From positions 26,498 to 90,497 of the forward strand of contig DASUEN010000222.1 in NCBI GenBank assembly GCA_036275055.1: DNA of 64,000 nucleotides, given 5' to 3'. The notes under the pieces are model-generated. The model was given only the letters and a program-made list of their open reading frames with translations, did not search any database and was not told where the DNA came from. Origin of the DNA: Thermoanaerobaculia bacterium. GTDB lineage: Bacteria; Acidobacteriota; Thermoanaerobaculia; Multivoradales; UBA5704. A program made the position numbers and the translations under genes. Every line of letters starts with the position of its first letter. The stretch's first letter is position 1. Shown in pieces: positions 45,038 through 61,525 of the stretch.

Positions 45038-45063
45038 ACCATCTTCTCACTGTTAAGAGTTTA

Positions 45064-48000
45064 TTACCCACGCCGCTCCTGGCGGATCGACTGCTCGATC
45101 TGATCCCGGCGGTCCCAATAGGCGCTCAAAGCGGGTTCTTCTTTGATCAACGGCTCGATCCTTTCTAGGAGGGCGAGATATTCCGATGGATTCAATCCCA
45201 GAGTCTGAGACCTCGTGCGGAGCAGGAGATCTTCCTGTTGGTGCGGTGATGACTTTTCGAGGACGCTTTGCCACTCGGAGGGCCTAAAGGAGCGCATTGG
45301 AAGATGGCGCCGCAAGACGCGCGCCGTGGGCCGGGCAATCGCAGCGATCGACGCCCCCAGGAAGAGGGCGAGGATCGCGATGATAAGGTACCGGGAAATC
45401 GACCGGAACAGGTCGACGTTGAAAATGATCAGGCCCGCGACGATCAAGTGAATCGCGCCTATGATCAGCTTGTCGTAACCAGGAAATCCGATGTCGCTAA
45501 CGGCCTCCCGTGAGATCTTTTTCAACCAGACTGCGCCCCCGGAGAGAGAATGGATAAAGCGCTCCAATCGTTTGGGGAGGTAACGGCCCGTGAGAAGCCG
45601 ATAGACCAGCCAGCAGGCTAGGAGCAGACCAGTGAGCACGAGAAGCTCGGAAGTACCCTTCGCGTAGGGCAGCCCCAAGAGCCGGCAGAGCCAGACCGCG
45701 AGATCGTGAAGCTTCCGGCTCCCGAAGACGATAGCGAAGGCAAGCGCTGCGCTGCCTGTCACAATACCGATCAACGCGCCGAAGAGTCCCACCGAGAGGC
45801 GATGGCATTCCTCCCAGGGGAGCTTCAAGATGGCACCGGTGTTGTAACCTGAATGCCTCCAGCGCCGGGTAGAGAAGGAATAGCCGGCGAGGGTGCCGAG
45901 ATGGGCCAGGGCAGGGATCGGAATCAGGGCGATGCAAGCGGCGATGTAAAATCCCCCGAAAAATGAATCCAACGCGCCGAGCTTCCATCGCAAGAGATCC
46001 GGCAAAGCCTGAGAGAGGCCAAGACCGAGGCCCGCACTTCCAAAGCAGAAGAATCCCACGATGATGGGCCGGTATCTCAGCGAAAGACCCATCGTCAAAA
46101 GTACGGCAACGACCTGAGGGAGCAAGGATTCTCCTGGTTGAACATGGGCCAGGCCGCCGAGGATCTTCAGGATCCCCGCGTCGTGAGTGGAGCGAAGCAG
46201 GAAGAGGGTTGTCTCGGTCAGGGCGCACGCCGCAGCCAGCACGATTCCCAGATGAAGCAGGCCGAACGCCGTGGCCACCCCGAAGGTTAGCCATGGCTTC
46301 AGCCTACGGTTCTCCTTCGCGGCTTTGGCAAAGGCCAGGAAGCGTGCGAAGAAGGAGTTGTCCGCGAGAGCGAGCCCCATCTGCGTGGCGAAGTCCGCTC
46401 CTCCGGCGTAAGGCTCCTGTTGGGATGCGAGGACGATGAGAGCCTGGTTCCGTACCCACTTCACGGGAGATTGCAAAAGTTTTTCGAGCGAGCTCTGAAG
46501 ATCGATCTCCGCGAGGTTCCGGCAGGAGCGCATCATCTTGACCTGGGTTATGGGGCGGCCCTGTTCCGCGATGGTCTCGACGGCTTCCTGCAGGCAGGGG
46601 CGAAGGCGCTCCCGCACGGCTTGCGACCTGCTGGCGCCGTGACGGACCAGACGGGCGCCGAGCTCGACCCGGTCGCCGAGCAGCGACTCCCGCTTGTACC
46701 GGGTCTCTCTTCCTTCTTCCCGATGGAGACTCTGCCATCTCGGCTCGTACGGCTGATGGAGCTCCGGCGTGATCTCTTTGATCGAGTCCGCGAGGGTTGT
46801 CACGCCCTCTTCGGCTCCCCCCATCAATACCAAGTTGACCATCGTCTCCTGCCAGCGGGGAGCGTCGAGCTTGACGAGCCACTCGATGGGAGGAGTGGCC
46901 TTCTGGATCCAGAGGGCCGCGAAATATTCCTGGAAGCGATGGTGCGCGAAACGGACCAGGTGGGGCCGCTCCGGAAGGGATTCCGCCAGCACGCCGCAAG
47001 ACCTGCCCGCCCGGATCAACGACTGCAAGCGTTCGATCTCTCCGGAACCGGCGGACTCTTCGATCAGATCCTCCACACCTGCCGCCGTGCCAAGGTTCCT
47101 GTCCGTAATGACGAAGGCGATTCGAGCCCATGCCGCGAAGGCTTCATTCCGGCTCGGGAAAGGCAGGCCTTCCTCCTCGCTTTCCTGCTGCTTGCGCTCG
47201 AAGCTCCGTTCGTACAGATAACCGAGCAGTTGGGTGCGCGACGTGGGCCAGGTCTTTTCCGCTTGCAGGAACAGACAAAGGAGCCAAAGGGTGAAAGGAT
47301 TAGTGGCATCAACGGTCAGCTCTCCCGCTGCCAAGCGCCGGGCGAGGCGGGGGAGGGGCCAGATCGTGCCGTCGATCTCCAGGCTCGGGACCCTTAGGAA
47401 ACGGCGCAGGTAGAGAGCGATCTGCTCGCGGTCGAAGGCGAGGAGAACCAGCCGCCGGTGAATGAACGAAGGGCTGAAGTCCGCGATCCGGCAGGAGAAA
47501 AGAGTCCGGGTGCGACCGCTCCGCGAGCCTGCGAAGACGCTCAGAGCCTCGGTGTGCTCGTTGTACCGGTCCCGGCTCATCTCGTCCATGCCGTCGAAGA
47601 GGAGGACCAGCCGGCCCTGCCGGTCGAGAGCGTCGATCCAGGGACGGATTCTCTCGGGAGCGGAGCGTTTGACGTGATCGAGCACTTCCTCCGGCCCTAC
47701 GCGGCCCTCCACATGGAACTCACCCAGCCGCACGAAGACGACGACCGAGGGGAAGACTCGCCGCACCTCGGATTTGAGCAGATCCCGAGCCGCTTCCTGG
47801 AGCGTCATCGTCTTGCCGCTGCCCGGGTCGCCCAGCAAAACGAGAGGGTCCGGACTTCTGAGCAGTTTCTCGACGAGATTCCTGACCGGCCGGCTTCGAC
47901 GATCGAGGGCGGCGATCTGCGCGCTCGCGGAATCCCCACCCTCCGACCGGCCCAGCACCTGGCGGACGAGCAATTGCACGGGCCGTTCGAAAGGATCGTT

Positions 48001-48678
48001 GGACTGCTCGTCCGCGGCCCCTTGGGGTACGTTGCGCGCGGCGAGTGGCAGATACTCCTTCAGCCGGGTTTTCCTTTGAATCTCGTTCTGGATGTGCGAG
48101 AGGGAATCGCAGAGGTAGCCCTGGATCTCGGCTGCTTCCGGCGGCTCGGGCAGGGTTCCCAACCGAGTCAAATCCGAATGAAGCCGAGGGAAGAGGCGAT
48201 CCAGCAGATGGCGGATCAGCCCAGGCCGGACGAGAGAGTAGGAACGGATTTCCGGAGAAGCTCCCTTCGAGCGCAAACGGTCGAGGATCAGCGAGGCGAT
48301 ATCTCCCGGACTGTAACCTTGAATACCGACCCAGCCATCGATCGTGAGAAGTCCGGAAATAGGTGCTTCGTCGAAACGGAGCAGCAGAATCCGATCGGGA
48401 CGTTGTTTCTTGATGATTTCCCTGACCACTCTCCACTCGACGCCGCAGCACCACTCGCCGGCGGCATAGTCCGCGCTCAGAAAGGCTACGATCAGGGGCG
48501 ACTTCTCATAGATGGATTGGAGATAGACGTCCAGATCCGGCCGGCCCAGCTCGGCTTCGTGATCTCGATCGTAGAAAACCTGGCCTTCGCCGAGAGATCC
48601 TTCCAGCAGGTTGGCGACTTTCGAGACGACGTCGCGCTGCCTGCCGGCAAACGAGAGGGCGACAAGGGGCGGAGACAT
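45064..48678 (-). CDS. TIR-NACHT (STAND NTPase) protein with HEAT-like region and C-terminal multi-pass transmembrane domain
   Basis: 1204 aa. N-terminal TIR ALSFAGRQRDVVSKVANLLEG..VFYDRDHEAELGRPDLDVYLQSIYEKSPLIVAFLSADYAAGEWCCGVEW. Walker A LLGDPGSGKTMTL. Walker B RLVLLFDGMDEM. C-terminal about 400 aa holds about 8 predicted TM helices. GC is lower than flanking housekeeping DNA. Confidence 0.75.
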   Translation of the reverse strand: MSPPLVALSFAGRQRDVVSKVANLLEGSLGEGQVFYDRDHEAELGRPDLDVYLQSIYEKSPLIVAFLSADYAAGEWCCGVEWRVVREIIKKQRPDRILLLRFDEAPISGLLTIDGWVGIQGYSPGDIASLILDRLRSKGASPEIRSYSLVRPGLIRHLLDRLFPRLHSDLTRLGTLPEPPEAAEIQGYLCDSLSHIQNEIQRKTRLKEYLPLAARNVPQGAADEQSNDPFERPVQLLVRQVLGRSEGGDSASAQIAALDRRSRPVRNLVEKLLRSPDPLVLLGDPGSGKTMTLQEAARDLLKSEVRRVFPSVVVFVRLGEFHVEGRVGPEEVLDHVKRSAPERIRPWIDALDRQGRLVLLFDGMDEMSRDRYNEHTEALSVFAGSRSGRTRTLFSCRIADFSPSFIHRRLVLLAFDREQIALYLRRFLRVPSLEIDGTIWPLPRLARRLAAGELTVDATNPFTLWLLCLFLQAEKTWPTSRTQLLGYLYERSFERKQQESEEEGLPFPSRNEAFAAWARIAFVITDRNLGTAAGVEDLIEESAGSGEIERLQSLIRAGRSCGVLAESLPERPHLVRFAHHRFQEYFAALWIQKATPPIEWLVKLDAPRWQETMVNLVLMGGAEEGVTTLADSIKEITPELHQPYEPRWQSLHREEGRETRYKRESLLGDRVELGARLVRHGASRSQAVRERLRPCLQEAVETIAEQGRPITQVKMMRSCRNLAEIDLQSSLEKLLQSPVKWVRNQALIVLASQQEPYAGGADFATQMGLALADNSFFARFLAFAKAAKENRRLKPWLTFGVATAFGLLHLGIVLAAACALTETTLFLLRSTHDAGILKILGGLAHVQPGESLLPQVVAVLLTMGLSLRYRPIIVGFFCFGSAGLGLGLSQALPDLLRWKLGALDSFFGGFYIAACIALIPIPALAHLGTLAGYSFSTRRWRHSGYNTGAILKLPWEECHRLSVGLFGALIGIVTGSAALAFAIVFGSRKLHDLAVWLCRLLGLPYAKGTSELLVLTGLLLACWLVYRLLTGRYLPKRLERFIHSLSGGAVWLKKISREAVSDIGFPGYDKLIIGAIHLIVAGLIIFNVDLFRSISRYLIIAILALFLGASIAAIARPTARVLRRHLPMRSFRPSEWQSVLEKSSPHQQEDLLLRTRSQTLGLNPSEYLALLERIEPLIKEEPALSAYWDRRDQIEQSIRQERRG

Positions 48679-48723
48679 GGCTCGGGAACCTACTCTGGGA
48701 ACCGCGGCTTGTCCACACGGCGC

Positions 48724-48948
48724 CTAAACATCGAGATAGCTTCCGAACCGCTTCACCAGCTCCCGGATGAAGCTCCACTCCTCGGCGGAGGGATCGGCGA
48801 GGACGCCGTTGAAGCGCCAGCCGGCTTCGTAGCGCCGCAGCATGTCGAGCGGCTCGAGGTCTCGGTACTTGCAGTCGAACCAGGAAATGCTCTCCAGGAA
48901 AGGCAGTCGCTCAGGGATGGCGATCTCGAAGACGGGTCCGGCGGCCAT
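48724..48948 (-). CDS. small hypothetical protein (74 aa) immediately upstream of the TIR-NACHT gene
   Basis: ORF MAAGPVFEIAIPERLPFLESISWFDCKYRDLEPLDMLRRYEAGWRFNGVLADPSAEEWSFIRELVKRFGSYLDV. Same strand, 12 nt after the upstream small gene. Confidence 0.4.
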   Translation of the reverse strand: MAAGPVFEIAIPERLPFLESISWFDCKYRDLEPLDMLRRYEAGWRFNGVLADPSAEEWSFIRELVKRFGSYLDV

Positions 48949-48960
48949 GGGAGCATGGTA

Positions 48961-49290
48961 TCAGGTTCTGGCCGCCTTCAGGGTGCCGAGCGAAGTCAGG
49001 ACGCTCTGCGTTACGTCCCGGCCACCGTGGAAGTTCACCCAGACGGACTGGATGGTGTAGATCGGCCCCCAGGGGATTCCCCACCAGCCGGCGAGAAGGG
49101 AGAGCAGGGTGAAGCCGAGCCCTTGGGTTACGGCACTCTCGTTGGGGCGGACGTAATAAATGTCCGACGGCCGCTTGAACGTGATCACCAGTACCGAGAT
49201 GCAATATTGGTAGATCACGAACTTCGCGCCATGCTGAACCTCGAGTTGGATCTGTTCCTTCGTCGCTCCTTCGAGTCCCTTGATTTGCAT
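48961..49290 (-). CDS. small hypothetical protein (109 aa), first gene of putative 3-gene operon
   Basis: ATG 49290 with AAGGGGGA SD on minus. MQIKGLEGATKEQIQLEVQHGAKFVIYQYCISVLVITF...GWWGIPWGPIY. Confidence 0.45.
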   Translation of the reverse strand: MQIKGLEGATKEQIQLEVQHGAKFVIYQYCISVLVITFKRPSDIYYVRPNESAVTQGLGFTLLSLLAGWWGIPWGPIYTIQSVWVNFHGGRDVTQSVLTSLGTLKAART

Positions 49291-49541
49291 GCCCGGTCCC
49301 CCTTCTCAGTAGAGATGGATGGATCTCGTAGCACCTCACCGCGCGGCAGCGTGCAGCGGTGCCATCCGGCTGAGGCCAGTGTTATACGATTCCACATCTG
49401 ACTTTTGTTCATTGGTGCCACTTTTAGAATCCTCGGCCGGCGTCCTCTCTGGTTTCGCTGCTGGTTTCTCAGTCTTGCCTTATCTGTAGGCTCCCCGCCT
49501 CTGCCTTGCCGCCACCCTTTCCAACCACTCTTTTTCCAACG

Positions 49542-50285
49542 TTATGGCCGTGAGCGGTGGGGCCGCGCTTTTTGCGGTGCCGTCCGCTCGACGACCGGAG
49601 TTGGGCGCCCATTGTTCCCGAATCTCCAGAGGAAATACCCGCTTCCCCTCTGTACCTCTTCAAGCGGCAAGACTCGCTTGTAGTAGCTGACCAGATGTCT
49701 TAGTTCATGCTTGAAGAGTTGTTCTGCTGAGGGATCGCTGGGCTGATCGTCTGGCGCAGAATCGAACTGGAGGGGTACCGGCTGCATTACTGCAGCGTGC
49801 AGGCCGATCTTCTGCTGTAGGTATTCGGCGAGTGCTTTCGTGGCCTGGATACCAAGGCCGTTACCGGCGTACGAGGGACGCACCTCAAGCAGATGCATAA
49901 ATGCGATCGGTCCCAATCGAAGCATGCTAGTCACGTCTAGCTTGCGGGCGCTGAACAGAAGCGCGGCGAAATCGCAAAGTTCTTGGCTCTGCGCGTCACA
50001 GGCGTCGAAGAAGGTCCACCGGCTGACCTCTGCGTTCTCCTCAGTCTTCGCGAATATGTACCAGTGGAGATAACCTACGGCGACGCCATTCTGAGAATCG
50101 CGGATCTGCCCTTCGACCTCTTGAATTGAGATATCGTCCTCAAGCTCGTTCTCGATGTGAGCCAAATACCAGTTAAGGATTAGCCCAGGAGCAACGCTGA
50201 GCCTTTTGGAGCCGCGCTGTGGCGGAAGTTGCTCCCGTCGGTAGAACCCCAAGTGGTTACGCGAAGCAAGACGGGGGCTATTCAT
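49542..50285 (-). CDS. hypothetical protein, possible GNAT-family acetyltransferase
   Basis: 247 aa. VRPSYAGNGLGIQATKAL resembles the GNAT acetyl-CoA motif (Q/R-x-x-G-x-G/A). Lower-GC region. Confidence 0.4.
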   Translation of the reverse strand: MNSPRLASRNHLGFYRREQLPPQRGSKRLSVAPGLILNWYLAHIENELEDDISIQEVEGQIRDSQNGVAVGYLHWYIFAKTEENAEVSRWTFFDACDAQSQELCDFAALLFSARKLDVTSMLRLGPIAFMHLLEVRPSYAGNGLGIQATKALAEYLQQKIGLHAAVMQPVPLQFDSAPDDQPSDPSAEQLFKHELRHLVSYYKRVLPLEEVQRGSGYFLWRFGNNGRPTPVVERTAPQKARPHRSRP

Positions 50286-50901
50286 GAATCTGAAACCTTA
50301 AGGTGGCGCCGAACGTCTCAGAAGCTCACCGGCGACGACCGCACTATAGTGCGTGCTTGGCGGCGAAGCGATCTTGTCGCGAGATCCCCAACACCGTCCC
50401 GCTTCTCTCTCCCACTCTCCGGCTCCTCGAGTTCACGCCGCCACCAAAGCCGCACGAAAGGCATTCTACGAAATCTACGCCGCTTTCGTCAGCACTTTCC
50501 GTGAGGCGTCTGAGCGGCTGAGGCACGGTGATCGCAATGCGCCGTTCCCAGTCGGAAGCTTCCCGCCGGCCCTGCCCTTCGTGGCCGGATAGCAGCATCG
50601 CCGCCACTCTTTGACAGCCTCGTCGGCCGCCGAGGGCCACTCCTACGAGCTGATTCGCTCGCTTGAGTGGAGGTGTGCCCATTTCGGCCCGAAGTGGCTC
50701 GCTCCGGCCGCTGCCAGCACCCAATCCGCAGGTCCAAGCCCCGCACCAGCCGCGAAATCGTCTTGGGTTTCTAAAACTACGCTGGCACTTTTTACTCCGG
50801 GCACCTGCTATGCACTTCACCTTATTGACTCCCGCGCCATACCGAGAGATGCAATCGCTATCGAGAGTACTCCTGACGCACCTGAAGTTACCCGTGCGAG
50901 G

Positions 50902-53265
50902 TCACTTCCCAAGAAATATCTTGAGAGCACGCAAGAATGGTGCACCGTTCTCACTCTTACTAGAAGTCAGTGCCTGAAAAAAATCGCGATGCTTCCGCGT
51001 TTTCTGCACGCCCAGAGTTCGGAAGAACTCCAGTGCTACGCGTTCGGCAATCAAATCGCACGTCTGTCTCGCTTCTTCTGACAGAACTACTCCGTTTCTG
51101 TCTGCGGTCAAGGGCAATGCAAGAGGCGGAATGATGTTGATGTCGTAAGTGACAGGCAACGGGAAAGGCACAGTAGGCGGCTCTGAGTTGTGCGACCACG
51201 TAGAGCGCGATGGAAACAATGAATGACGCACCGTGAATCCATGCTGGCTCCAGCGTCCGGTAGAAGACGCATGAATGGAATAGCCATGGCTGATGCCTTC
51301 CTTGCTGGTGCGATCAACGTGCACATGCTCGATCGCCGACCATACATGACGGAGGCGGTCCGAGAGGTCCTCGCCATCCTCGCCAAATTCTTCCTCAAGG
51401 AACACCTCGTTAGTGAGGCCAGAAAGAAAATGAACACGCACTTCACCTTCAATCCCACTCTTCGGATCAAGCACAACGTCGACGTACGAGCAGCGTTCAT
51501 ACTCGTCACCCGCGCGTTGCACTGCCCAGCCTTGGGACAGTTGCGACGTTGCGCCATCGGGCTCGGCGACCTGAATGAGAACGTGCGTATGCGGAGCCAG
51601 AACCGCGACCGTAGAACTTAGCGTTGGCGTATCTTTGATACCGGACTTGAGCCACAGTTGCTTCGGGTCGGCGGATAAACGAACGGAGATATGCGTGCCC
51701 GGCGAAGCACGAGCGCTTTTATTGAACCAGAACAAACTGCCTTGGCTAGCGACCTGAATCGCAAGCGGCGTCGTATTGTTACCTATGCGTCGCGTGTCAA
51801 CCTCAAGCAGGTCTCCCACCATAAACACCGACAGAATACCGATCCCAAACTGAGAGACCGGCTTAAACTCCAACCCTACGCGTGCTCGGTGCTGCAAAAA
51901 CTCGCTAGACGTGTAATAGCTCCGGCCGACTCGCGCGAAGTAGTTGCGCACGATGGGTTCATCCATGCCCATGCCGTTGTCTTCTACGTCCATATACCAG
52001 TAACCGTCGCTCTGCCTACAACTCACTCGCACGATGGGCTCATACGGGCCGAGTTCAGGCTGGCGCCGGTGCAAAGCATCCCGGTGCCGACACGAATCTA
52101 CCGCATTTTGAAGCAACTCACGTAAAAACAGAATTGGCGTTCGATATAGATTCAACCCCATGAGGAGGCTGGTGATACGATCCTCATCCAACGAGAACCC
52201 GATATCGAGATACGTATACCGCGGCCCAGCCGGTCCGAACTCGGCACGAACGTCTACGGTCGAAACTTCCAGAGGTAAGTCTAGAGCATAGTGCGCCGAC
52301 AGAGCGTTCACGGCTGGGTCGTGCATGCCAGCAAGCACGCTGCGCACACCTCGAAGTTCCCGCTCGATCATTCGCACAAAGTCTCGGACACACTTCTCGA
52401 TGACCGGGTCTGAGCACTGTGCAGCAAATGCTATTCGCGTCGGCTGAATGTCCCAGGCCGTAATGGCTCGATGCTTCTTCCACTCTCTCACGCTTACCGA
52501 GTCACGGATCCCAAGGTGCTCAAACAGGACGGCCGGAGTGCGCTTGGGGTCGAAGTCCAGAATATCGGCGAGCCGAAGCACGCAAGCAACAAAACGCCAG
52601 TTGCAATACTCGCCACCCGCACGGACGAGTTCGCGCGCGGGTATCGCGTTGACGGAGGACGCGTCTTCATTATGACTGAAGCAGACATCTGCTAGCCGGC
52701 TGGTAAAGTTATAGTTGTCGTAGACGAGTTTGTTGCCATAGCTCTCAAAGAGCAGCTTGCTAGCGCGCGCAGCATGAGTTCTACGCAAGTACTCAACGAG
52801 AAGTCCAGCCTCGATCTCCTGAGCCTCGAAGTGACGCTCGGCATGCCTAAGGGAAGCTTGCCGCTTCAGGAGCCCTGGATATGCTTCTCGAAGCGCGAGG
52901 TACTGCTGTTTTTCCTCTATCGTCGGGTCTGCGTCTGAGGAGAGGAGCGCACGCACCTCAGCATCCGACGGCGCCATCCCAATATCATGGTAGGCCGCAC
53001 TCAATATCAGCGCAGCAAGTTCAAGAGCATCCAATTTGCTGAGCGTGCGCTCAGGAATGACGCGTCCCATGAGCCTGACGACCTCAACCAGATGCACCTC
53101 GTCATGCAAGGTGTACTCTGGCATATGCTTCACAACCGTCTTGGTCCGCTGGATGGCGTCGTCAAAGCATTCTTCGACGGTGAGCAGCAGTCGATTGGCG
53201 GCGCGGTCGTCGCTAGCCTTCGTAGCCAGGAGTTGGTAGAGCGTAAGGTCGCGCAGGGTGGACAT
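50902..53265 (-). CDS. HD-domain phosphohydrolase fused to GHKL/HATPase_c (Hsp90-like) ATPase
   Basis: 787 aa. HD: YTLHDEVHLVEVVRLM ... AALILSAAYHDIGM. Bergerat fold: LRELLQNAVDSC (N-box), MDVEDNGMGMDEPIVRNYFARVGRSYY (G1), QFGIGILSVFMVGD (G2). Low-GC island. Confidence 0.75.
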   Translation of the reverse strand: MSTLRDLTLYQLLATKASDDRAANRLLLTVEECFDDAIQRTKTVVKHMPEYTLHDEVHLVEVVRLMGRVIPERTLSKLDALELAALILSAAYHDIGMAPSDAEVRALLSSDADPTIEEKQQYLALREAYPGLLKRQASLRHAERHFEAQEIEAGLLVEYLRRTHAARASKLLFESYGNKLVYDNYNFTSRLADVCFSHNEDASSVNAIPARELVRAGGEYCNWRFVACVLRLADILDFDPKRTPAVLFEHLGIRDSVSVREWKKHRAITAWDIQPTRIAFAAQCSDPVIEKCVRDFVRMIERELRGVRSVLAGMHDPAVNALSAHYALDLPLEVSTVDVRAEFGPAGPRYTYLDIGFSLDEDRITSLLMGLNLYRTPILFLRELLQNAVDSCRHRDALHRRQPELGPYEPIVRVSCRQSDGYWYMDVEDNGMGMDEPIVRNYFARVGRSYYTSSEFLQHRARVGLEFKPVSQFGIGILSVFMVGDLLEVDTRRIGNNTTPLAIQVASQGSLFWFNKSARASPGTHISVRLSADPKQLWLKSGIKDTPTLSSTVAVLAPHTHVLIQVAEPDGATSQLSQGWAVQRAGDEYERCSYVDVVLDPKSGIEGEVRVHFLSGLTNEVFLEEEFGEDGEDLSDRLRHVWSAIEHVHVDRTSKEGISHGYSIHASSTGRWSQHGFTVRHSLFPSRSTWSHNSEPPTVPFPLPVTYDINIIPPLALPLTADRNGVVLSEEARQTCDLIAERVALEFFRTLGVQKTRKHRDFFQALTSSKSENGAPFLRALKIFLGK

Positions 53266-53546
53266 TTGAAGCGAGCTTACAGCAACGCTGCCATGCCACG
53301 CAACTTCAACGATCGCTGATCCGTCGAGCGGAGAGGGCGCGCTGCCGCCTTACGCGGTCGACTCGTGACCCGCGCTGCGGCCCCCCGATGCGTTCAAAGA
53401 ATTCCCATTTTGACGGCGATAGCCGCGCCACCTGGGGCAACCGTGTCGGCCGGTCATGCCAGGCTGGGAGTTCAACACCTCGTCCGCCCAACGCCTTGAC
53501 GCCTCACCGATGGACGGCGGAGACGGCCGCTCGGTGCAGGCGGGGG

Positions 53547-54260
53547 TTAAGCGGTGCCACGGCCTCGACTTGCGCCGGTATGCTGAAAGTTGTATAGTGT
53601 CTTTCGGCTAGGAAGAAGCTCTTCTGGGTAGGCTCCACCCTCCAGGATCTGCGAGCTTTCCCAGAAGCTGCCAGACGCCTCGCAGGCCATGAGCTGCACC
53701 TGGTTCAACAAGGGCTTGATCCGGATGACTGGAAGCCCATGACCAGCGTGGGGCCCGGTGTCCAGGAGCTGCGGATACACACCGGCGTGGAGCATCGGGT
53801 CTTCTACTTGGCGAAGTTCGAAGAAGGAGTATAGGTAGTTGCCTTCCAGGTATGGATCACCGCGCAGGTCAATGTAGACCTTTCCTCGTAGGATTGAGGT
53901 AGCCGCCTCTCTCCAGTCACCTGACCGAAGTAGGGGAACGAACTTCCTGTCGTTGCGTTCAGTCATCACTTCGGCCGTAATGATATGTCCTTCGTAGCCG
54001 ACGCCACCTATGCGTCGATCTGACTTCTCTTTGTACTTAGGAGTGCAGACCATGAGGACGAAGTCACTGTCTCGTATTGCAGTTTCCATAAACTGAGGCA
54101 GCTGATCCCCGGGAGCAACCTTCCACTCGTCCAAGATCAGATCGATGCCGTCACTGCGGAGACGGGCACCAAGCCTCTTGACCCATTCCTTATGCTCCTC
54201 GCTATCCCACGAGTACGAGATGAATGCCGTGGGTATCTGCTTAAGAAGTTCGCTTGTCAC
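53547..54260 (-). CDS. TIR-domain protein (bacterial TIR_2-like)
   Basis: GTG start at 54260; no in-frame ATG nearby. AFISYSWDSEEHKEWVKRLGARLRSDGIDLILDEWKVAPGDQL..FMETAIRDSDFVLMVCTPKY = canonical TIR core. 237 aa. Sits upstream of the HD-GHKL gene on the same strand with a 281-nt gap. Confidence 0.7.
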   Translation of the reverse strand: MTSELLKQIPTAFISYSWDSEEHKEWVKRLGARLRSDGIDLILDEWKVAPGDQLPQFMETAIRDSDFVLMVCTPKYKEKSDRRIGGVGYEGHIITAEVMTERNDRKFVPLLRSGDWREAATSILRGKVYIDLRGDPYLEGNYLYSFFELRQVEDPMLHAGVYPQLLDTGPHAGHGLPVIRIKPLLNQVQLMACEASGSFWESSQILEGGAYPEELLPSRKTLYNFQHTGASRGRGTA

Positions 54261-54410
54261 GGTCGACTCTTGTGCCGTTTAACGGGATCGGGCCTGGCGC
54301 CGCCAAGCATCCGCTTGAGGCCCTGTGTTAGGCGTCGGGCCACAAGCGGTGATGTTTTGCATGTGTTGCATTACTGCAACCCGATGCGACCGCGGCTAGC
54401 AGCCGTCATC

Positions 54411-54800
54411 TCAGTGCCTCGTAGAAGGTGTGCACGAAACTGTGCATGCGGAATACGGCGAAAGGCTCTCAAGCTGCCAGCCCTGGTCATAAAGTCTGTA
54501 GACGATCATGAGATTCGTGCTTAGTACGCAAGGTGTACCGTAGAATGGATCCTCGCTTTCGAGGTTGACGGCTGCATAGATCGTATCATTACCGGCGCGC
54601 CGGTTTGTAGATCGCCGTATCAGCTGCCAGCTGCTGACTGCCTGGACGGTGTTGACGTGCGGTATGAACTGGTTGCCGCAGCGGAGTTGCTGCCCGACCA
54701 GGTCAGCTTGCATGCGGGTTTCGCTGGTTAACGGTCTCAGGTAGCCGCAGTCGAGGAGAAGCAACGCGGTTCCTAAGAGAGCAACTTTCCACTGGATCAT
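54411..54800 (-). CDS. hypothetical secreted protein
   Basis: ATG 54800 with GAGGA upstream (track start 54812 is TTG). MIQWKVALLGTALLLLDCGYL signal-like. 129 aa. Confidence 0.35.
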   Translation of the reverse strand: MIQWKVALLGTALLLLDCGYLRPLTSETRMQADLVGQQLRCGNQFIPHVNTVQAVSSWQLIRRSTNRRAGNDTIYAAVNLESEDPFYGTPCVLSTNLMIVYRLYDQGWQLESLSPYSACTVSCTPSTRH

Positions 54801-54889
54801 TGGCGTCCTCAATAAGTCAGAAATAGAGCAGGCGATGATCCCTGCGTTTAGTCTTAAGTTCGCCCTCGGCTACTACGTTGCCGGCCGAC

Positions 54890-56988
54890 GCCGCCGAGTA
54901 GGCCAGGGGCCCTTACGGGCCCCCAGCCCCTCTAAGAACCGTACGTGCGAGTTTCCCCGCATACGGCTCAAGCCTTTCAGAAGGCCGATTGCTCGACCCG
55001 GCTGTTGGGTTGTCCGGGTTGACTCGTTCCATGGCCGTGAGTGGTTTCCTACGAGCTCGGAGCCCGAGCCGGCCTTGACGCTTCCGCAGCCAACGCTGGT
55101 AGAAGTACTCGTCGTAGGCAGGATCGTACTCCCTGGCTTCGGCTCGTATCTTAACATGCCGGCGAATCGGCATGCTACTCACCCGAAACAGGTCCAGAGA
55201 CCCCCAGGTCCCGTCCCGGTTCCGGAGAGGCGCCGTGAAGGTCCACCGACCGGAGGGCTCGATGCGGAAGTATTTCTGTCGCACCCAGCCTTTCCCCTTG
55301 GTGGGGTGCCTTCTCTTCGCCCATCGCCATAGAGCTTCGAAGACGCGCTTATCTACATATCGAAAGGCCCGACTGGAGACCAGGTGTCTCTGGCTGTTCG
55401 CCCAACCTCGCAGCTTGCTGTTGAGCCGGCGAATCAAGTCCAGAGCCGTGGCCGCCTTCTGGGTTCGGATCACTTCCCGGACATTCCGCAGCAGACCCAG
55501 GACGTTGTCCTTCGACGGCCTGATCAGCAGCTTGCGTCCATACTTCCGGACGTTGGCTCCGAGAAAGTCGAATCCAGCCTCGATCTGCGTGATCTTCGTC
55601 TTCTCCTGTGAGAGATTCAGACCCCGTTCTGCGAGGAAGGCAGCTACCGCAGGCAAGACTTTCTCCTCCAACTGCTCTCGCGAGCGGCCGGTGATGACAA
55701 AGTCGTCTGCGTAGCGCACCACGTTGATCTTCGGGCGGAGGTTCCCCTGACGGCGGGAATCCGCCTGCAAGGCCACCGTTTCCAGGCCATCCAAGGCTAG
55801 GTTCGCTAGAACCGGGGAGATGATTCCTCCCTGGGGCGTACCTTCCTCGGTCGAATAGAGGACCGGGCCTTCCATGTAGCCGGCCTTCAGCCATTTCCGC
55901 AGGATGTCGCGGTCCATTTGGACGTTGCCGAGCAGCCAGCGGTGGCTGATCCGATCGAAGCAGGATTCGATATCCCCTTCGAGGATCCACTGGGGAGAAT
56001 CCTCTTTGGCCAACGCACAGTAGCACTGGCCCAAGGCATCGGCGGTTGAACGCCGCGGCCGGAAGCCGTAGGAGTTCAGGTCGGCCTGGGTTTCCGCCAC
56101 CGGAAGCAGCGCCAGCAGGTGAAGCGCCTGCATGGCTCGATCCTTCATCGTAGGGATTCCCAGGGGCCGACGCTTGCCGTTCCTTTTGGGGATGTAGAGC
56201 CTGCGCAGAGGCAGTGGCTTGTAGCCAAACCGCCTCAGAGATCGGGAGGCCTGCATCTTCTGCCGAGGCGTTTTCCAGAGAACCTTGTCAACGCCCGGCG
56301 TACGTTTCCCTTGATTGGAGACAACCCTTCGCACCGCCCAGAGCTTTGCCGCCCATGAGCGGGTGAGGAGCCGCTGGAGAAAGTGGACCTTGCCCCAGCA
56401 CTTCTCGTGTACAGCCTTTGCGATACGCACCTGCAGCCGTCTGACCTTACGGAAGATGGCACGCCAGTCGATGGCGTTCCAGTTCTCTCGCCAGACCGGG
56501 AGTGCACCGGCGTCAAGCGCCTCTCTTTGCTCTCTCCCTTTCCAAGACGGTTCCACAAGCTCTCTCGCAACGAAAGACCTGTCGGACGTGGGCTCACTTT
56601 CGTGCCGGGTAACGTTGAAACCCGTATCCGCCCCATTACAGGACGGCCTTCGCTTCTTCCGACATCCCAAGCCCGCACCTCCGTCAGTTCCCCTCACGGG
56701 TCGCCTTCCCTTTACGGGAGGAGATACAGGGTTACCACGTTCCGCTCCTGAAGTCTGTGCGGGGTTAGGTACCTGCTGTCGACCGGGAAGCGCTGTTGAC
56801 CACGAGGTGGCACCGTTAAATCCACCTCCGGCTTCCGCGCCTTTTGGCTCAAGCTTATCAGCCACTTTAGCTCGTGCTCCATGACGGTCGTTGCACAGGT
56901 TCACATGCGTTTACCCTACCCGCTACCTAGCCATCGCCCGGCTCGTGGCTGCCAGGAGAGCAGGTTCCTCACGGTCCCTGCCCCGCAC
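54890..56988 (-). mobile_element. bacterial group II intron (about 2.1 kb) with intron-encoded RT/maturase
   Basis: 5' end GTGCG on minus strand (complement of plus 56984-56988). Canonical domain V GAGCCGTATGCGGGGAAACTCGCACGTACGGTTC at 54936-54969 (minus). Domain VI hairpin with GTAA tetraloop at about 54895-54930. Domain I-like sequence (GAGCCAAAAGGCGCGGAAGCCGGAGGTGGATTTAACGGTGCC) upstream of the ORF. Confidence 0.8.
54913..56556 (-). CDS. group II intron reverse transcriptase/maturase (IEP)
   Basis: Likely GTG start about 56556 (VEPSWKGREQ... precedes the NWNAIDWRAIFRKVRRLQVRIAKA thumb-0 motif). RT motifs include YADDFVITG; maturase X domain. No En domain. The frame stays open through domain V/VI to 54913. 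The track ORF 54913..56904 over-extends at the N-terminus into domain I. Confidence 0.8.
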   Translation of the reverse strand: MEPSWKGREQREALDAGALPVWRENWNAIDWRAIFRKVRRLQVRIAKAVHEKCWGKVHFLQRLLTRSWAAKLWAVRRVVSNQGKRTPGVDKVLWKTPRQKMQASRSLRRFGYKPLPLRRLYIPKRNGKRRPLGIPTMKDRAMQALHLLALLPVAETQADLNSYGFRPRRSTADALGQCYCALAKEDSPQWILEGDIESCFDRISHRWLLGNVQMDRDILRKWLKAGYMEGPVLYSTEEGTPQGGIISPVLANLALDGLETVALQADSRRQGNLRPKINVVRYADDFVITGRSREQLEEKVLPAVAAFLAERGLNLSQEKTKITQIEAGFDFLGANVRKYGRKLLIRPSKDNVLGLLRNVREVIRTQKAATALDLIRRLNSKLRGWANSQRHLVSSRAFRYVDKRVFEALWRWAKRRHPTKGKGWVRQKYFRIEPSGRWTFTAPLRNRDGTWGSLDLFRVSSMPIRRHVKIRAEAREYDPAYDEYFYQRWLRKRQGRLGLRARRKPLTAMERVNPDNPTAGSSNRPSERLEPYAGKLARTVLRGAGGP

Positions 56989-57411
56989 GCTTGCGCGTGC
57001 CTCTGTACATTGTCAGGGCCGCTCTTTATTCAGGCCCCTAGGTTCACCCGGTGGTACGGGTGGTTTCACCTCCTACTTCGAGAGAAACAACTTCATATTA
57101 AGAGCGACATTGTGTCGCAGTAACGCCTCTGAAGCTCACCGGGCGGCAAGTGCGCAAAGCGCGGTTGCCGCCCGGTGTAGCGCTGTGGTTGGCCGTCCCT
57201 CCTTGAAACTGCCTAATAATTGCACAGACTGCTGGCTTTTCAAGGAGAGGTTAGCCTTTCTGTATATGGAATTGTTGGTCACCGATTCCCAAGTTTTAGT
57301 TCTTGGAGAGTACGTCCAACGTTGTTAGACTTAAAGTCCTCAGCCCGTTTGCTTACATCTGCTGCCACCATCTTCCATTGCTTGTCGAACGGGTCATATT
57401 TAAGGAGAACT

Positions 57412-57993
57412 TTAAGGCGCCGGTCCCGAGCATGGTCCCAACCTCGGGCTCTCGAAGGCCGCTGACATTTCATCCGGCACGTCGTAAGTATACGTCCCAA
57501 GCACCACTCTATATCGATCCGTTCCCACAACTTCCTCATCGTTGGAAACGATGCTCTCGATCTTTATGGTAGCAACTTTCGTGAACAGCTCATCGAAGTC
57601 GCCATTATGCTTGATAGTGCCGGCCTTACCGCCGCCCTCAGTTAGTTTGATCGTCGCAGTCTTCCTGACACCGCTCTGAGTAAGGCTGAACCAATCGTTC
57701 CAACCGCTGAAATTCTGCGTCAGATCCTTAACATTGCCGATAGTGATCACGCCTTTCTTTGCAAAGGCTTGGTACAAAGGCCACTCACTGATAGATTCTC
57801 GGCCTTTCGCTGCGTCTGGATTCTCAGCGACGAACTTCACCTCACCCAGCATCAACCCAACGTCTGGCTTATTCCAGAGATTCTCTATCAAATTCCGTGC
57901 TTCGCCATCTCCAAGGGCATCGGACCGGGAACAATAACTCAGGGCGACTGCGCTAACAACAATACCTACCAGGCGTAAACTTCGTCCAATCAT
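57412..57993 (-). CDS. hypothetical secreted/lipoprotein-like protein
   Basis: ATG 57993 with AGGAGA SD on minus. MIGRSLRLVGIVVSAVALSYCS signal. 193 aa. Low-GC island. Confidence 0.45.
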   Translation of the reverse strand: MIGRSLRLVGIVVSAVALSYCSRSDALGDGEARNLIENLWNKPDVGLMLGEVKFVAENPDAAKGRESISEWPLYQAFAKKGVITIGNVKDLTQNFSGWNDWFSLTQSGVRKTATIKLTEGGGKAGTIKHNGDFDELFTKVATIKIESIVSNDEEVVGTDRYRVVLGTYTYDVPDEMSAAFESPRLGPCSGPAP

Positions 57994-58435
57994 CGTATCG
58001 TCTCCTGTACAACTGAACTCGTGGCCAACCTCAAGATCAACTGTATCCGGCTCCTCCCCAATGCCTTCCCGACAGTCTCCACGTCTGCTCAGGCTACCGG
58101 TGAATGGGATGTATATCATTCATTCTATGGAGTGTAAGCATTGTACACCGATCCCTAATCCTCGTCAACGTTGGTTGGGTTGTCGGGTTGGAGCCTGGCC
58201 GCGCGGAGCGGCACAAAACTTAGCCAGACCGGTTTCCGGTGGCCTATTCTACTGATGAGAATGAAGTTAGCACCGCCCGTACCGGCTAAGCGGTTCGAAG
58301 TGCGGGGCGAGTGGAACGTTATCCGACAAAGGAGTGTCGGGTTTGCAGCTCATGGTTGGTGCTAAGCTCAATGGAATGAGACTCATCGGCTGAGCTGGCG
58401 CGATGATTGACCGACACGACGCCTGTCGGCTAAGG

Positions 58436-58739
58436 GCTCGTCACAGAATAACTGTGCCAGTTTGCGTCCGGCCCAACGGGCCTGGATACCTTAGCCCAGG
58501 GCCGAGGCCGAAGGCCGATGCCCTGGGAAAAAGGCGCCCCATCGGTGCGGCCTGAAGGGCCGCAAATCGTTTCGACAAGAAGAGTATCGCTGCCCTTCAG
58601 GCCGCACTGCTTTGGGATCCTGCCACCCAGGGCGTCGGCCTTCGGCCTCGGCCCTGGGCTAAGGTATCCAGGCCCGTTGGGCCAGACGCCCTAGTAGGAC
58701 TGAGCTCCGGGGAACTGGCGCAGTTATTCTGTGACGAGC
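58436..58739. repeat. about 300-bp near-perfect palindrome: two about 95-115 nt inverted arms (about 95% identical apart from a 22-nt indel) around a spacer with a nested 16-bp IR
   Basis: Arm 1 58436-58527 and arm 2 58627-58739 are reverse complements. The inner IR GTGCGGCCTGAAGGGC / GCCCTTCAGGCCGCAC is at 58544-58607. Each arm also has internal hairpins (CCCAGGGC...GCCCTGGG; GGCCCaacGGGCC). Confidence 0.8.
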
Positions 58740-58809
58740 CCTAAGAGGCCGTCGCCAAGCCGACAGAGGAATGGGAGGGGCCTTTCTCGGCGCGCCAAGC
58801 CGGTCAAGC

Positions 58810-59012
58810 TACAGGATGTCCACGGGGCTCCTTACGCCACGCCCGTCTCGGTTGAGCACGCGGGTGTAGATCATCGTCGTTTTCACGGTCTTGTGACCCA
58901 GGAGCTCCTGCAGGGTCCGGAAGCGGAGCTCGTTGCCTTCGGGACGCCGGCGCTCCCAGGCAATGGCCCTCGGACAGGTTTTGCCGGAATGGACGTTCCT
59001 TGAGGAGGGGTG
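58810..59012 (-). pseudogene. C-terminal remnant of an integron-integrase-like tyrosine recombinase (IntI/XerC-like)
   Basis: The minus frame between two in-frame TAG stops translates to ...[40 protein letters not shown]. This is very similar to the IntI C-terminus (LGHSDVSTTMIYTHVL..GGAGVRSPLD). No start codon, and the upstream 250+ aa are missing. Confidence 0.6.
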
Positions 59013-59132
59013 CTACCCTCCCCTGGCCGCCTCAGGGAGTACGAGGCTCCGGTTCTCTCCTCGTTCCGGGGTCCGAGCTGCGTAGCAAGCTCCCGAGCTC
59101 ATGGGTTGAGGCTCCGCAACAGTGTTCCTGGA

Positions 59133-59360
59133 ACCAAACACATTGTAGGAGCTTCCCAACACATTGTGGTAGCGTTCCCCAACAATGTAGTTCGGCCCAG
59201 CAACAATGTGGTTGGGCTCACCAACAATGTGTTTCGGCCCAGCAACAATGTTGGGGAACCAAAACACATTGTTGCTGGCGCTCCCCACATTGTGTTTTGG
59301 CTCTCCCACAATGGGTCGGGCCCCAGCAACAATGTGTGCAGCCGCTCCAACATTGAGGCG
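59133..59360. repeat. iteron-like array: 11 copies of a 21-bp repeat with (C/A)ACAATGT / ACATTGT core in mixed orientation, perfectly phased
   Basis: Cores at 59140, 59161, 59182, 59203, 59224, 59245, 59266, 59287, 59308, 59329, 59350. Spacing is exactly 21 bp. The ACAATGT and ACATTGT cores are reverse complements of each other. Confidence 0.8.
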
Positions 59361-59458
59361 GGAGGTTTTTTCACCAGGGTGGGACGCTGCACCGACGTGG
59401 GGAAGCCCGCTTCCATTGGGTGCGGCGAGTTTTTCAATGGGATGAAGCGGTGACCGCT

Positions 59459-59866
59459 TCACAGCTCCGAGGATGCTGTGTCGAGTCCTAACTCCAGCTC
59501 CTCTTGAAGCCGCTGGCGCAGCTCGCCGGGTGCGAGGAGGAGGCCGGGATCCTCCGGGGTGGGGAAGAGGGCGACGCGCAGGGCATCTTCCGCCAGCAGG
59601 GGGAGGAGGTCTTCCAGGAGGTCTTCGAGCGCGATCGGGGCCGGCTCGGCGCCTTCCCAGTTGCCGCGGGCACAGGCTCTCGCCAGCTCGGGATGGGGCC
59701 AGAGGGGGAAGGCGTCCATCTCCTTGGACACCACCCAGCCGCGATCGTCCTGGAGCCCCCAGACCTCGTCCCAGTCGGCGGCGAGCTGCACGAGGTGGAC
59801 GGCCCGGTCCGCGGCGGGCAGGGCCTGGAGCGTGCGGAGCTCGCCGTCGCCGGTCTCCCAGCTCAT
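59459..59866 (-). CDS. small acidic hypothetical protein, co-transcribed downstream of the NYN-domain gene
   Basis: 135 aa. MSWETGDGELRTLQALPAADRAVHLVQLAADWDEVWGLQDD... Start 7 nt after the upstream stop. Confidence 0.5.
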   Translation of the reverse strand: MSWETGDGELRTLQALPAADRAVHLVQLAADWDEVWGLQDDRGWVVSKEMDAFPLWPHPELARACARGNWEGAEPAPIALEDLLEDLLPLLAEDALRVALFPTPEDPGLLLAPGELRQRLQEELELGLDTASSEL

Positions 59867-59872
59867 CGCGGA

Positions 59873-61525
59873 TCAGCCACCCGCGTCCTCGTCCTCGATC
59901 TCCTCGGCCGCCGTCCCCACCGTCACCGGCTCGCGCGGGTCAGACCCTTCCGCGCGTTTCAGGTCGCCCAAGATCCAGTCGGAGAGGGTCTGCATCTCCG
60001 TGGCGTCCAGGGAGATGCCGGCGCTGTCGCAAAGGCTGATGACGTTGCGGAAGAAGCAGGCGGCGAGGGCTAGCGGGTCTTCTGGCACGCTCTGGCCGAA
60101 GCGGTGGCCGCCGAAGGTGATGCCGCGCAGGATGAAGTTGACGCTGGCGCGGGCGATCGGCGAGCCCTCTTCGATGCACCGGTCGCGCACCGCTTTCGAG
60201 GTGCGGGTGAGGAAGTAGCTGTGCTCGCTGACCTCCTCGGCGGTGAGGCGGAAGACGCGGGCATAGTCGCCGCGCGTCAGGTACGGAGTGTCCGTGAGCT
60301 GGTGGACGCGGTAGGCGAGCGAGTTCAGCTCGGGATCGCCCACCAGCTCCTCGGGACGGCCGTCGATGGGGAGCTGATGGCGGGCCGGGTCGTAGATGTA
60401 GCCCGGCTTCAGGGCCGAGATGGCGAAGCCCGGGTTCTCCCGCCCTTCGAGCAGGTCGCGGAAGGTGCCGGCGCCGGCCCAGCGGGTGGAGAGCACCTGC
60501 TCGCCGAAGCGGCTGATCACCATCTGCGCGGCGCGCGCCATGGGCACCGCCGAATCCGAGGAATCCACCACCGAGCGCACGTGGCCGAGCACCTCCTCGA
60601 TCAGCCGGCTGCGGTCGGCCGGAGGGAGGAAGCGAGGGACTACCGGCACGATGGGGCGTCCCAGATCCGGGAGCGGCCCGGGCTCGCTCACCGCTTCGCC
60701 TTCGGCCACGATCCCCACCCGCCAGGGATCGCCGTCCAGCATGGCGAGGTCCTGGCGCGTCTGGATCACTCCCGTCGTCATGTTGCGCAAGCTGTTGAAG
60801 CCCAGCCAGTTGGTGCTCGCCGTGAACTCCGGGAACTCGCGGAAGATGGGGGGAAGCTCGGTGGCGATCAGCTCGCCGCTGGCGCTCGCCCGCTCGTAGA
60901 CCTTGTCGGCGATGCGCCGCAGCAGCTCGCCCATCGCCGAGGTGGCCGAAGGACCGGAGGCGGCGCGCGTGGCCTGGCCCGGAGTGGCGCCGATGGCGTC
61001 CTCCAGGAAGGTGTCCTGGTCGATGAGCAGGTCGCAGGCCGCTTTGTAGGCCACGGAGGCAGGGCCGATGGCGAGCACGGCGCTGCGCCGGTCGTGCTTC
61101 GAGAGGCGCAGCAGCACCGGCGTGAAGTCGGCGTCGCCCGAGAGCAGGATGAACTCGTCGAAACGGGTGACGTGGGAGAGCGTGTCGAGGATGTCCATCA
61201 CCATGTGGATGTCGGCGCTCGTCTTGCCGCCGCTCGTCAGGGGCGGGCAGTCCACCACCTCGAAGGCCGAGCGGGTGAAGTAGGGGCGGAAGCGCCCGAA
61301 CTGCGACGGGTTCAGGTAGCAGCGGCGGAAGAGGATCATCCGCCGCCGTCCGTCCTCCGTGTACTCGGGGAGCTTGTCCTGGAGCCAGAGCAGCCAGCGG
61401 CCGGGGTCGGTCGCGAACTGTTCGGCGGCCACCGGGTCTTCACGCTGAAGGCCCAGGTAGATGTTGTCGAAGTCGACGAAGAGCGCCGTCCGCAAGTGCG
61501 TCGGGCTCGGGAGAGAATCCGGCAT
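59873..61525 (-). CDS. NYN (LabA-like PIN-fold) domain protein with large C-terminal extension
   Basis: 550 aa. ALFVDFDNIYLGL...MILFRRCYLNP...SADIHMVMDILDTL...FILLSGDADFTPVLLRLSKHDRRSAVL = NYN/LabA core with conserved acidic residues. Confidence 0.7.
   Translation of the reverse strand: MPDSLPSPTHLRTALFVDFDNIYLGLQREDPVAAEQFATDPGRWLLWLQDKLPEYTEDGRRRMILFRRCYLNPSQFGRFRPYFTRSAFEVVDCPPLTSGGKTSADIHMVMDILDTLSHVTRFDEFILLSGDADFTPVLLRLSKHDRRSAVLAIGPASVAYKAACDLLIDQDTFLEDAIGATPGQATRAASGPSATSAMGELLRRIADKVYERASASGELIATELPPIFREFPEFTASTNWLGFNSLRNMTTGVIQTRQDLAMLDGDPWRVGIVAEGEAVSEPGPLPDLGRPIVPVVPRFLPPADRSRLIEEVLGHVRSVVDSSDSAVPMARAAQMVISRFGEQVLSTRWAGAGTFRDLLEGRENPGFAISALKPGYIYDPARHQLPIDGRPEELVGDPELNSLAYRVHQLTDTPYLTRGDYARVFRLTAEEVSEHSYFLTRTSKAVRDRCIEEGSPIARASVNFILRGITFGGHRFGQSVPEDPLALAACFFRNVISLCDSAGISLDATEMQTLSDWILGDLKRAEGSDPREPVTVGTAAEEIEDEDAGG

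Follow-up and report, generated by a model that had tools for sequence, protein, structure and literature searches.

Gene layout and domain architecture of the locus

The stretch considered here spans positions 45064-49290 of a 64-kb window, the whole of the DNA that was analysed; all coordinates are window positions, and the genes of the stretch lie on the minus strand. Its principal gene is an open reading frame (ORF) of 1204 aa, 45064..48678 (-), which encodes a TIR-NACHT protein with a C-terminal transmembrane (TM) bundle and whose full 1204-codon frame is intact. Two small co-directional ORFs, orf74 (74 aa) and orf109 (109 aa), lie upstream, with gaps of 45 nt between the NACHT gene and orf74 and of 12 nt between orf74 and orf109; these coordinates match exactly the three spaced, co-directional ORFs listed in an earlier, first-pass annotation of this DNA. 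The 1204-aa product is identical to the GenBank entry 'MAG TPA: NACHT domain-containing protein [Thermoanaerobaculia bacterium]' (MAG, metagenome-assembled genome), which comes from a 102.7-kb contig.

Pfam profiles identified TIR_2 at residues 6-115 (34.7 bits, above the cut-off of 28) and NACHT at residues 278-428 (45.5 bits against a gathering cut-off of 26.7). In an alignment of 67 relatives, both the Walker A motif GDPGSGKT (283-290), which follows the consensus GxxxxGK[ST], and the Walker B residues D362-G-M-D-E366 are invariant; the Walker B signature specific to NACHT proteins is D[GAS]hDE (Kibby et al., bioRxiv 10.1101/2022.07.19.500537). The AlphaFold2 model of residues 1-1200 had a predicted local distance difference test (pLDDT) score of 81.5 and a predicted template modelling (pTM) score of 0.73. 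The top 40 Foldseek matches of this model were all NLR NACHT modules, the best being NOD2, NLRC4, NLRP3, NLRP9 and NAIP5 (E = 2e-9 to 1e-6), with alignments covering 500-700 columns. The Pfam NACHT profile, the Walker A/B signature, a helical/winged-helix extension and the NLR-like fold all place the protein in the NACHT clade. Over residues 6-139 the model shows the alternating strands and helices of a TIR domain, in a flavodoxin-like beta/alpha arrangement. Because Pfam domains, invariant motifs and a confident NLR-like model coincide, the identification as a TIR-NACHT STAND NTPase is sound; the first-pass annotation had made this call and had let it depend on alignment of the N-terminal domain to a TIR profile.

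The limits of the domains are given in Table 1. The region joining TIR and NACHT (residues 141-237) has a mean identity to relatives of 0.40, and pLDDT falls below 50 for residues 208-260. Within the part of the NACHT module that follows the nucleotide-binding domain (residues 441-600), the model places strands at 532-534, 564-566 and 574-577 amid helices. For the C-terminal 600 residues, no covering model was found in PADLOC, NCBIfam or Pfam, and sequence searches of the PDB with the full protein, the helical region and the tail returned nothing significant. The antiphage NACHT protein EruA (NCBIfam NF058535) was considered as an identity for the protein and rejected, as the match reached 34.3 bits against a cut-off of 1000 and its best stretch comprised the P-loop region only (residues 269-300).

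Membrane module, helical region and C-terminal tail

A Kyte-Doolittle scan located eight hydrophobic segments within residues 801-1115; in the AlphaFold2 model, long helices cover residues 793-1121, and four short ones come after them (1133-1199). For a topology of eight TM helices with both termini inside, the loops carry 24 Lys and Arg residues on the cytosolic side versus 9 on the periplasmic side. Nearly all full-length homologs have 6-16 hydropathy segments at the same position, and thus the hydrophobic segments are not a chance feature of this protein; the homologs without such segments are all 866 aa or shorter and are probably fragments. The eight segments, the positive-inside bias, the modelled helices and their retention in relatives consistently point to a polytopic membrane protein, in agreement with the C-terminal domain of about eight TM helices that had been proposed from the sequence. 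The extent of that domain needed correction: membrane helices are predicted over about 330 aa (791-1120) rather than about 400, and the remaining 85 aa form a soluble, conserved tail. Since the number of helices is even, both ends of the bundle would be cytoplasmic, with the TIR-NACHT part and the tail on the same side of the membrane.

The tail is modelled with pLDDT values of 90-98 and contains the residues W1136, Q1148, P1182, Y1187, W1188, R1191 and Q1200, which are near-invariant among the 67 relatives; no match to it was found in Pfam or the PDB. Ahead of the bundle, residues 601-790 carry the family motifs DAPRWQETM, GNPITQVKMMR and WVRNQALIL. The first-pass annotation had described this region (about 600-790) as a HEAT-like stretch. 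It is helical in the model, but residues 568-800, when excised, matched no HEAT or other repeat in Pfam even at E<=10, and hhalign of the family sub-alignment against a hand-written HEAT consensus gave a probability of 0.06% (E = 0.78), which did not exceed the TPR and ankyrin controls. A single HEAT-like motif, SPVKWVRNQALIVL, can be picked out by eye. HEAT repeats were set aside as unsupported, both Pfam and hhalign being negative.

The NACHT-TM protein family and its evolution

A search with the full-length protein found 153 relatives in Acidobacteriota, Planctomycetota, Chloroflexota, Gemmatimonadota, Myxococcota and Proteobacteria, including the cultured Pseudoalteromonas luteoviolacea and Variovorax. 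Because the matched region begins at about residue 130-150 and extends to the C-terminus, the common scaffold of the family consists of the pre-NACHT region, NACHT, the helical region, the TM bundle and the tail. In front of this scaffold the N-terminal domains are exchanged, with TIR_2, SEFIR, CHAT, Trypsin_2, PNP_UDP_1, SIR2_2, SMEK_N, DUF4062, EAD1/9/11 and bDLD1/3 all represented and TIR_2 present in about 50 of 120 tabulated relatives (hand count). Such domains are the effectors and adaptors catalogued for bacterial NACHT (bNACHT) and related conflict systems (Kibby et al.). When the TM bundle plus tail was used as query against 1.84 billion representatives, the matches were limited to the NACHT-TM family and to short entries, probably fragments of C-termini; the best-matching part was the last 110 residues.

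Conservation differs along the scaffold. Relative to the query, the nucleotide-binding domain has a mean identity of 0.61, the helical/winged-helix part 0.46, the helical region and the tail 0.42 each, and the TM bundle 0.19. The ratio of nonsynonymous to synonymous substitution rates (dN/dS) relative to a 79% identical homolog is 0.21 overall, lowest in the nucleotide-binding domain (0.12), 0.18 in TIR and highest in the TM bundle (0.33), with other parts at 0.12-0.19. Based on these regional values, the NACHT gene is kept by selection, and the TM bundle is the fastest-evolving part of the scaffold.

About 10% of the relatives begin at the conserved pre-NACHT region, without an N-terminal domain. 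In three of the three such members examined, on independent contigs, a separate TIR_2 gene of 149-151 aa lies 32-98 nt upstream in the same orientation; the effector thus appears always to be supplied outside the TM module. The neighbourhoods of these split variants also hold a second TIR protein, TacA1 with a GNAT-like gene, Prim-Pol, a giant TIR-WD40 protein and an integrase fragment. As context for a conflict or defence role, family loci thus adjoin other TIR, toxin-antitoxin, integrase or Prim-Pol genes, and in the window TIR and HD-CE genes are carried by the insertion next to the NACHT cassette. A search for viral carriage gave two distant NACHT matches only, neither of which reached the TM or tail region. 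On one further contig (locus L010, 389-8106; GCA_016307145.1, JADMIO012970255.1), two 1199-aa TIR-NACHT genes lie in inverted orientation, one of them being the 79% homolog (P0002); this inverted pair may be a palindromic assembly artefact.

A single-gene cassette with its own leader

Comparison by blastn with a syntenic relative (L013) showed that homology to the window stops at 48720 and resumes at 45037, which delimits a cassette holding the NACHT gene only. The locus of the 79% homolog (L009), where that gene follows a xanthine/uracil permease gene in an otherwise unrelated context, shares 48715..45065 with the window, i.e., the gene together with a 37-nt leader. The leader starts at the -35-like sequence TGGACA (48715-48710), which is followed by a 17-nt spacer and by the -10-like sequence TAGGTT (48692-48687), located 8 nt before the ATG. 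An automated promoter scan did not flag TGGACA/TAGGTT, a weak consensus match read by eye. Its sequence suggests that the NACHT gene brings its own promoter, possibly with a near-leaderless transcript.

As the first-pass annotation had noted, GC content is lower in the NACHT gene than in the neighbouring yjbQ (0.617 vs 0.662), and GC content at third codon positions (GC3) follows the same pattern (0.746 vs 0.859; backbone genes range from 0.84 to 0.93). The cassette edges share no 8-mers, the island edges share one inverted 8-mer at chance level, and no tRNA genes were found. Clustering of all ORFs across 10 family loci revealed no common neighbour gene; together with the domain order, this corresponds to the single-gene, tripartite architecture of bNACHT systems. 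These sequence comparisons indicate that the 1204-aa ORF is self-contained and was acquired horizontally as a single-gene cassette.

The small ORFs and the genomic slot

In related Thermoanaerobaculia contigs, the backbone of this region runs SpoIIE, TonB, NYN, DUF2750, orf74, a variable slot, YjbQ, VWA and peptidase M19; the window contains every one of the flanking backbone genes, with protein identities of 66-91%. Three relatives (L013, L014 and L024) have AbiEii in the slot between orf74 and yjbQ, L022 has AbiEii plus cytochrome c and L023 cytochrome c alone, and in L016 the slot is empty. By its varied content, this slot may be a small integration hotspot.

The resident gene orf74 is conserved at 70-85% identity across Thermoanaerobaculia-type genomes, is 84% identical to its counterpart in L013 and has a backbone-like GC3 of 0.84. 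It resembles the AbiE toxin-antitoxin system in that it matches the AbiEi profile and in that its counterparts in relatives overlap the start of the AbiEii gene. It differs from that system in being an orphan: AbiEii, present in L013, L014, L022 and L024, was found nowhere in the window, and the NACHT cassette occupies the place of the toxin.

The other small ORF, orf109, is the terminal gene of an adjacent insertion of about 10.5 kb. Its family comprises about 1,500 homologs at 60-72% identity from several phyla, which are about 100-170 aa long, have two weakly hydrophobic segments and occur as isolated genes in unrelated contexts. The window copy carries the sequence GWWGIPWGPIYT, and no Pfam or PHROG match was found for it.

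The first-pass annotation had read the three ORFs as a putative operon and had proposed a neighbourhood comparison for conserved small partners. In favour of a functional three-gene system, with the small proteins as partners or regulators of the NACHT protein, are the shared direction, the 12- and 45-nt gaps and the lack of a terminator-like site between the genes, which would allow co-transcription by read-through; an antitoxin-like orf74 could in principle also regulate a downstream gene. We nevertheless consider such a system very improbable. Neither small ORF was found near the nine other family loci (L001-L009) by tblastn or ORF clustering, orf74 is a backbone gene that is present with or without a downstream gene, and orf109 stems from a different insertion and has homologs that stand alone elsewhere. 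In addition, the NACHT gene has its own conserved leader, and GC3 differs among the three genes (0.79 for orf109, 0.84 for orf74 and 0.75 for the NACHT gene). The operon proposal therefore did not hold, since the comparison found no co-occurrence and gave the small ORFs separate origins. The tight spacing arises because two insertions flank the resident gene orf74, and on this comparative evidence orf74 and orf109 are predicted bystanders, outside the NACHT system. The case carries a lesson for annotation: tightly spaced, co-directional small ORFs can reflect insertion of a cassette into a variable slot rather than a functional operon.

The TIR catalytic motif of the window copy

In the window copy, the TIR catalytic motif reads WCCGVE, whereas the closest homologs carry WCGVE, WCRLE or WCALE. 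At the DNA level, the window has GAG TGG TGC TGC GGC GTC GAG TGG and L009 has GAG TGG TGC GGC GTC GAG TGG. Glutamate E81 is retained but falls at W+5, off the canonical W-x-x-x-E register by one residue; the alignment to the plant L6 TIR spans the catalytic motif and exposes this shift of register. The duplicated TGC may be tolerated or may compromise NADase activity; it may also be an artefact of the MAG consensus.

That the window copy is inactive or decaying, its effector disabled by the duplication, would fit the replacement of the canonical WCxxE of its closest homologs and the lower pLDDT (69-75) around residues 71-90. Against such decay speak the intact 1204-codon frame, the dN/dS relative to the 79% homolog (0.21 overall and 0.18 in TIR) and the retained glutamate; an extra residue at the start of a helix may be tolerated, and the duplication could itself be a consensus or assembly variant of the MAG. 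We thus give only a low probability to a decaying copy.

Sensor, anchor or effector

We interpret the 1204-aa protein as probably an inner-membrane-anchored conflict or defence protein of the NLR-like (bNACHT) type, made up of a TIR effector, a NACHT switch, a helical region, a TM bundle and a tail. The first-pass annotation had left the membrane part as a sensor or an effector. Of these, a sensor is the best reading, in view of the position of the bundle and of its being the most variable part, and the effector reading is disfavoured. The bundle is assigned to the sensor position because the N-terminal effectors are swapped, because split TIR genes supply the effector and because the bundle is highly variable.

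In the proposed mechanism, the TM bundle would be the input module and would respond to a membrane cue, such as a phage membrane protein, injection machinery or perturbation of the envelope. The conserved tail and the helical region would relay the signal to the NACHT domain, which would bind nucleotide and oligomerise as a switch, and the clustered TIR domains would consume NAD+ or make a signal, stopping growth. More tentatively, the hypervariable bundle, whose fold has no solved counterpart, may serve an NLR-type switch as a true module for pattern recognition inside the membrane, reading phage membrane proteins or envelope perturbation and signalling via the tail to NACHT. If this were true, lineages would plug TIR, caspase-like CHAT, trypsin, SIR2, PNP or Death-like adaptors onto one membrane sensor chassis.

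Several points weigh against the interpretation as a defence protein with a membrane sensor. The periplasmic loops are short (23 aa or less) and contain no obvious ligand-binding domain, and the TM helices are predictions from hydropathy, the AlphaFold2 model and the positive-inside rule. The low conservation of the TM stretch may partly reflect the poor alignability of hydrophobic helices and their variable number. The one-residue insertion in WCCGVE relative to WCxxE may leave the window copy enzymatically impaired. Finally, a search for a named defence system gave only noise in PADLOC and no matching PADLOC or NCBIfam defence model, and no tested members of the family were found in the literature.

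If the TM bundle were only an anchor, sensing would fall to the conserved cytosolic parts, the helical region and/or the tail, which might for instance guard a membrane-associated factor of the host. Such an arrangement would be consistent with the tail and residues 601-790 being well conserved (0.42 identity, near-invariant residues) and confidently folded, with a TM stretch lacking conserved polar or charged residues in the alignment of 67 relatives, and with the shortness of the periplasmic loops; a variable number of TM helices would also be easier to tolerate in an anchor. However, eight or more helices far exceed what anchoring needs, the segment is kept in nearly all full-length members and is under purifying selection (dN/dS 0.33), and a conserved cytosolic part suits a relay or latch better than an arms-race receptor. 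We therefore regard a bundle that only anchors the protein as rather unlikely, although it is the chief alternative to a sensor.

It is less probable still that the bundle is an effector, alone or with TIR, in which NACHT-driven oligomers would form a pore or ion leak in the manner of Tmn. Membrane-disrupting effectors are common in defence systems, about 10% of the family members lack a fused N-terminal effector, and Tmn is reported (PMC13001434) as a transmembrane P-loop NTPase that exports Mg2+. Yet the upstream TIR gene found in 3/3 effector-less members led us to reject the bundle as the sole effector of members without an N-terminal domain, and the swapped enzymatic effectors and adaptors would be redundant if the bundle did the killing. 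Moreover, effector modules are usually conserved and the TM stretch is the least conserved part; its fold matches no solved structure, and structure comparison revealed no resemblance to known channels or pore-forming proteins.

The neighbouring insertion and other features of the window

The second, independent insertion (about 10.5 kb, 48966-59491) separates DUF2750 from orf74. Its genes have GC contents of 0.52-0.61 versus 0.66-0.72 for backbone genes, and its cargo (Table 1) looks defence- or mobile-element-like. A segment of the PADLOC RT_UG24 (DRT) profile (positions 694-903) is also matched by the HD-CE/HATPase protein of this cargo (E = 1.1e-7), probably owing to an HD-CE-like module common to both. 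What looks like a complete group II intron spans 54893-57063 (-).

NYN and DUF2750 are adjacent in the window (59486-61525 (-)) and in most relatives, and they are fused into one protein of 675 aa in L016 (2972-4999). This suggests, at the level of gene order and fusion, that NYN and DUF2750 could be a functional pair.

Table 1. Coordinates of the features of the window and of the split variants found in relatives.
Feature	Coordinates	Strand	Remarks
Single-gene cassette, 3.68 kb	45038..48719	-	blastn breakpoints against L013; holds the NACHT gene only
Leader, 37 nt	48679..48715	-	Conserved with L009 in a different context; putative promoter
TIR domain, residues 1-140	48259..48678	-	Predicted NAD+-consuming effector; Pfam TIR_2, AlphaFold2 beta/alpha fold, L6 TIR alignment
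TIR catalytic-motif region EWCCGVEW, residues 75-82	48433..48456	-	In-frame TGC duplication
Linker and conserved pre-NACHT region, residues 141-237	47968..48258	-	Partly disordered
NACHT nucleotide-binding domain, residues 238-440	47359..47967	-	Pfam, Walker A/B, Foldseek, dN/dS 0.12
Helical and winged-helix part of NACHT module, residues 441-600	46879..47358	-	AlphaFold2, Foldseek
Conserved all-helical region, residues 601-790	46309..46878	-	Family consensus; AlphaFold2 helices
Polytopic membrane module, residues 791-1120	45319..46308	-	About 8 predicted TM helices, N-in/C-in
Conserved cytosolic C-terminal tail, residues 1121-1204	45067..45318	-	Four short helices; family hallmark
orf74, resident short AbiEi-like gene (orphan antitoxin-like)	48724..48948	-	PADLOC AbiEi PDLC02281, E = 1.2e-17
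orf109, small predicted membrane protein	48961..49290	-	Terminal gene of adjacent 10.5-kb insertion; boundary 48965/48966
GNAT-like ORF, 247 aa	49542..50285		Insertion cargo
HD-CE + HSP90-like HATPase protein, 787 aa	50902..53265	-	Insertion cargo
Stand-alone TIR_2/SEFIR protein, 237 aa	53547..54260		Insertion cargo
Group II intron reverse transcriptase/maturase ORF	54913..56904	-	RVT_N, RVT_1, GIIM
Intron-flanking Rfam match group-II-D1D4-7	56930-57063		
Intron-flanking Rfam match Intron_gpII	54893-54971		
Unknown ORF, 235 aa	57412..58119		Insertion cargo
Split TIR / NACHT-TM variants	L027 4519-8174; L028 4447-8108; L029 3516-7360		Three independent contigs

Comparison with known systems

The view that the C-terminal sensors of bNACHT proteins are usually soluble repeats, taken in the first-pass annotation, is half right: 'TM regions' are one of the five C-terminal categories of bNACHT proteins named by Kibby et al. 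(bioRxiv 10.1101/2022.07.19.500537), who devote one sentence to them and predict that multiple TM helices at the sensor position detect signals from within the membrane or the periplasm. Because this category has already been named, the type of architecture is known, and the 1204-aa protein is an uncharacterised member of it. It shares with the bNACHT proteins of Kibby et al. the layout of effector, NACHT and sensor position, a TIR domain as one of the listed effectors, the single-gene organization and multiple TM helices; it differs in its cytosolic tail after the bundle and its helical region before the bundle, which are not described there. No tested bNACHT protein with a C-terminal multi-pass region was found in the literature, including the first third of their Table S2. 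Within that third, the only tested protein visibly bearing TM helices is bNACHT13, which has a single N-terminal TM helix and no listed phenotype. A search of their Table S1 by the organism names of family members gave no match, and the papers of Kaur et al. cited for the 'TM regions' category do not describe the NACHT-TM-tail architecture. The '68TM-wHTH' type of clade 5 (Kibby et al.) is similar in that it comprises NACHT proteins with 6-8 TM helices, but there the helices are inserted in the NACHT module, whereas the bundle of the window protein is C-terminal. Assignment to this type was rejected, as the winged-helix region (about 532-577) lies about 200 residues ahead of the TM part, which begins at residue 793.

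Tmn, as reported in PMC13001434, is likewise a membrane-embedded P-loop NTPase in phage defence. It belongs to another NTPase family, and its membrane part is reported there as the effector (Mg2+ export), whereas the window protein has a separate TIR domain. Animal NLRs (NOD2, NLRC4, NLRP3 and NAIP5) provide the best structural matches of the NACHT module and follow the same logic of effector, nucleotide-binding oligomerisation domain and sensor. They differ in their soluble leucine-rich-repeat sensors and their CARD, PYD or BIR N-termini, share 12-16% identity with the window protein, and none has an integral membrane sensor. To our knowledge, the mechanistically understood NLR-type sensors of animals, plants and bacteria all read their triggers with soluble domains. 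The proteins related to that of the window constitute a large natural family with an integral membrane bundle in the sensor position, with interchangeable effectors and with split-gene variants. Because effectors are interchangeable, split variants exist and cultured hosts are available (P. luteoviolacea and Variovorax), the family is a convenient system in which to study whether, and by what means, triggering of an NLR-like switch can occur from inside the membrane.

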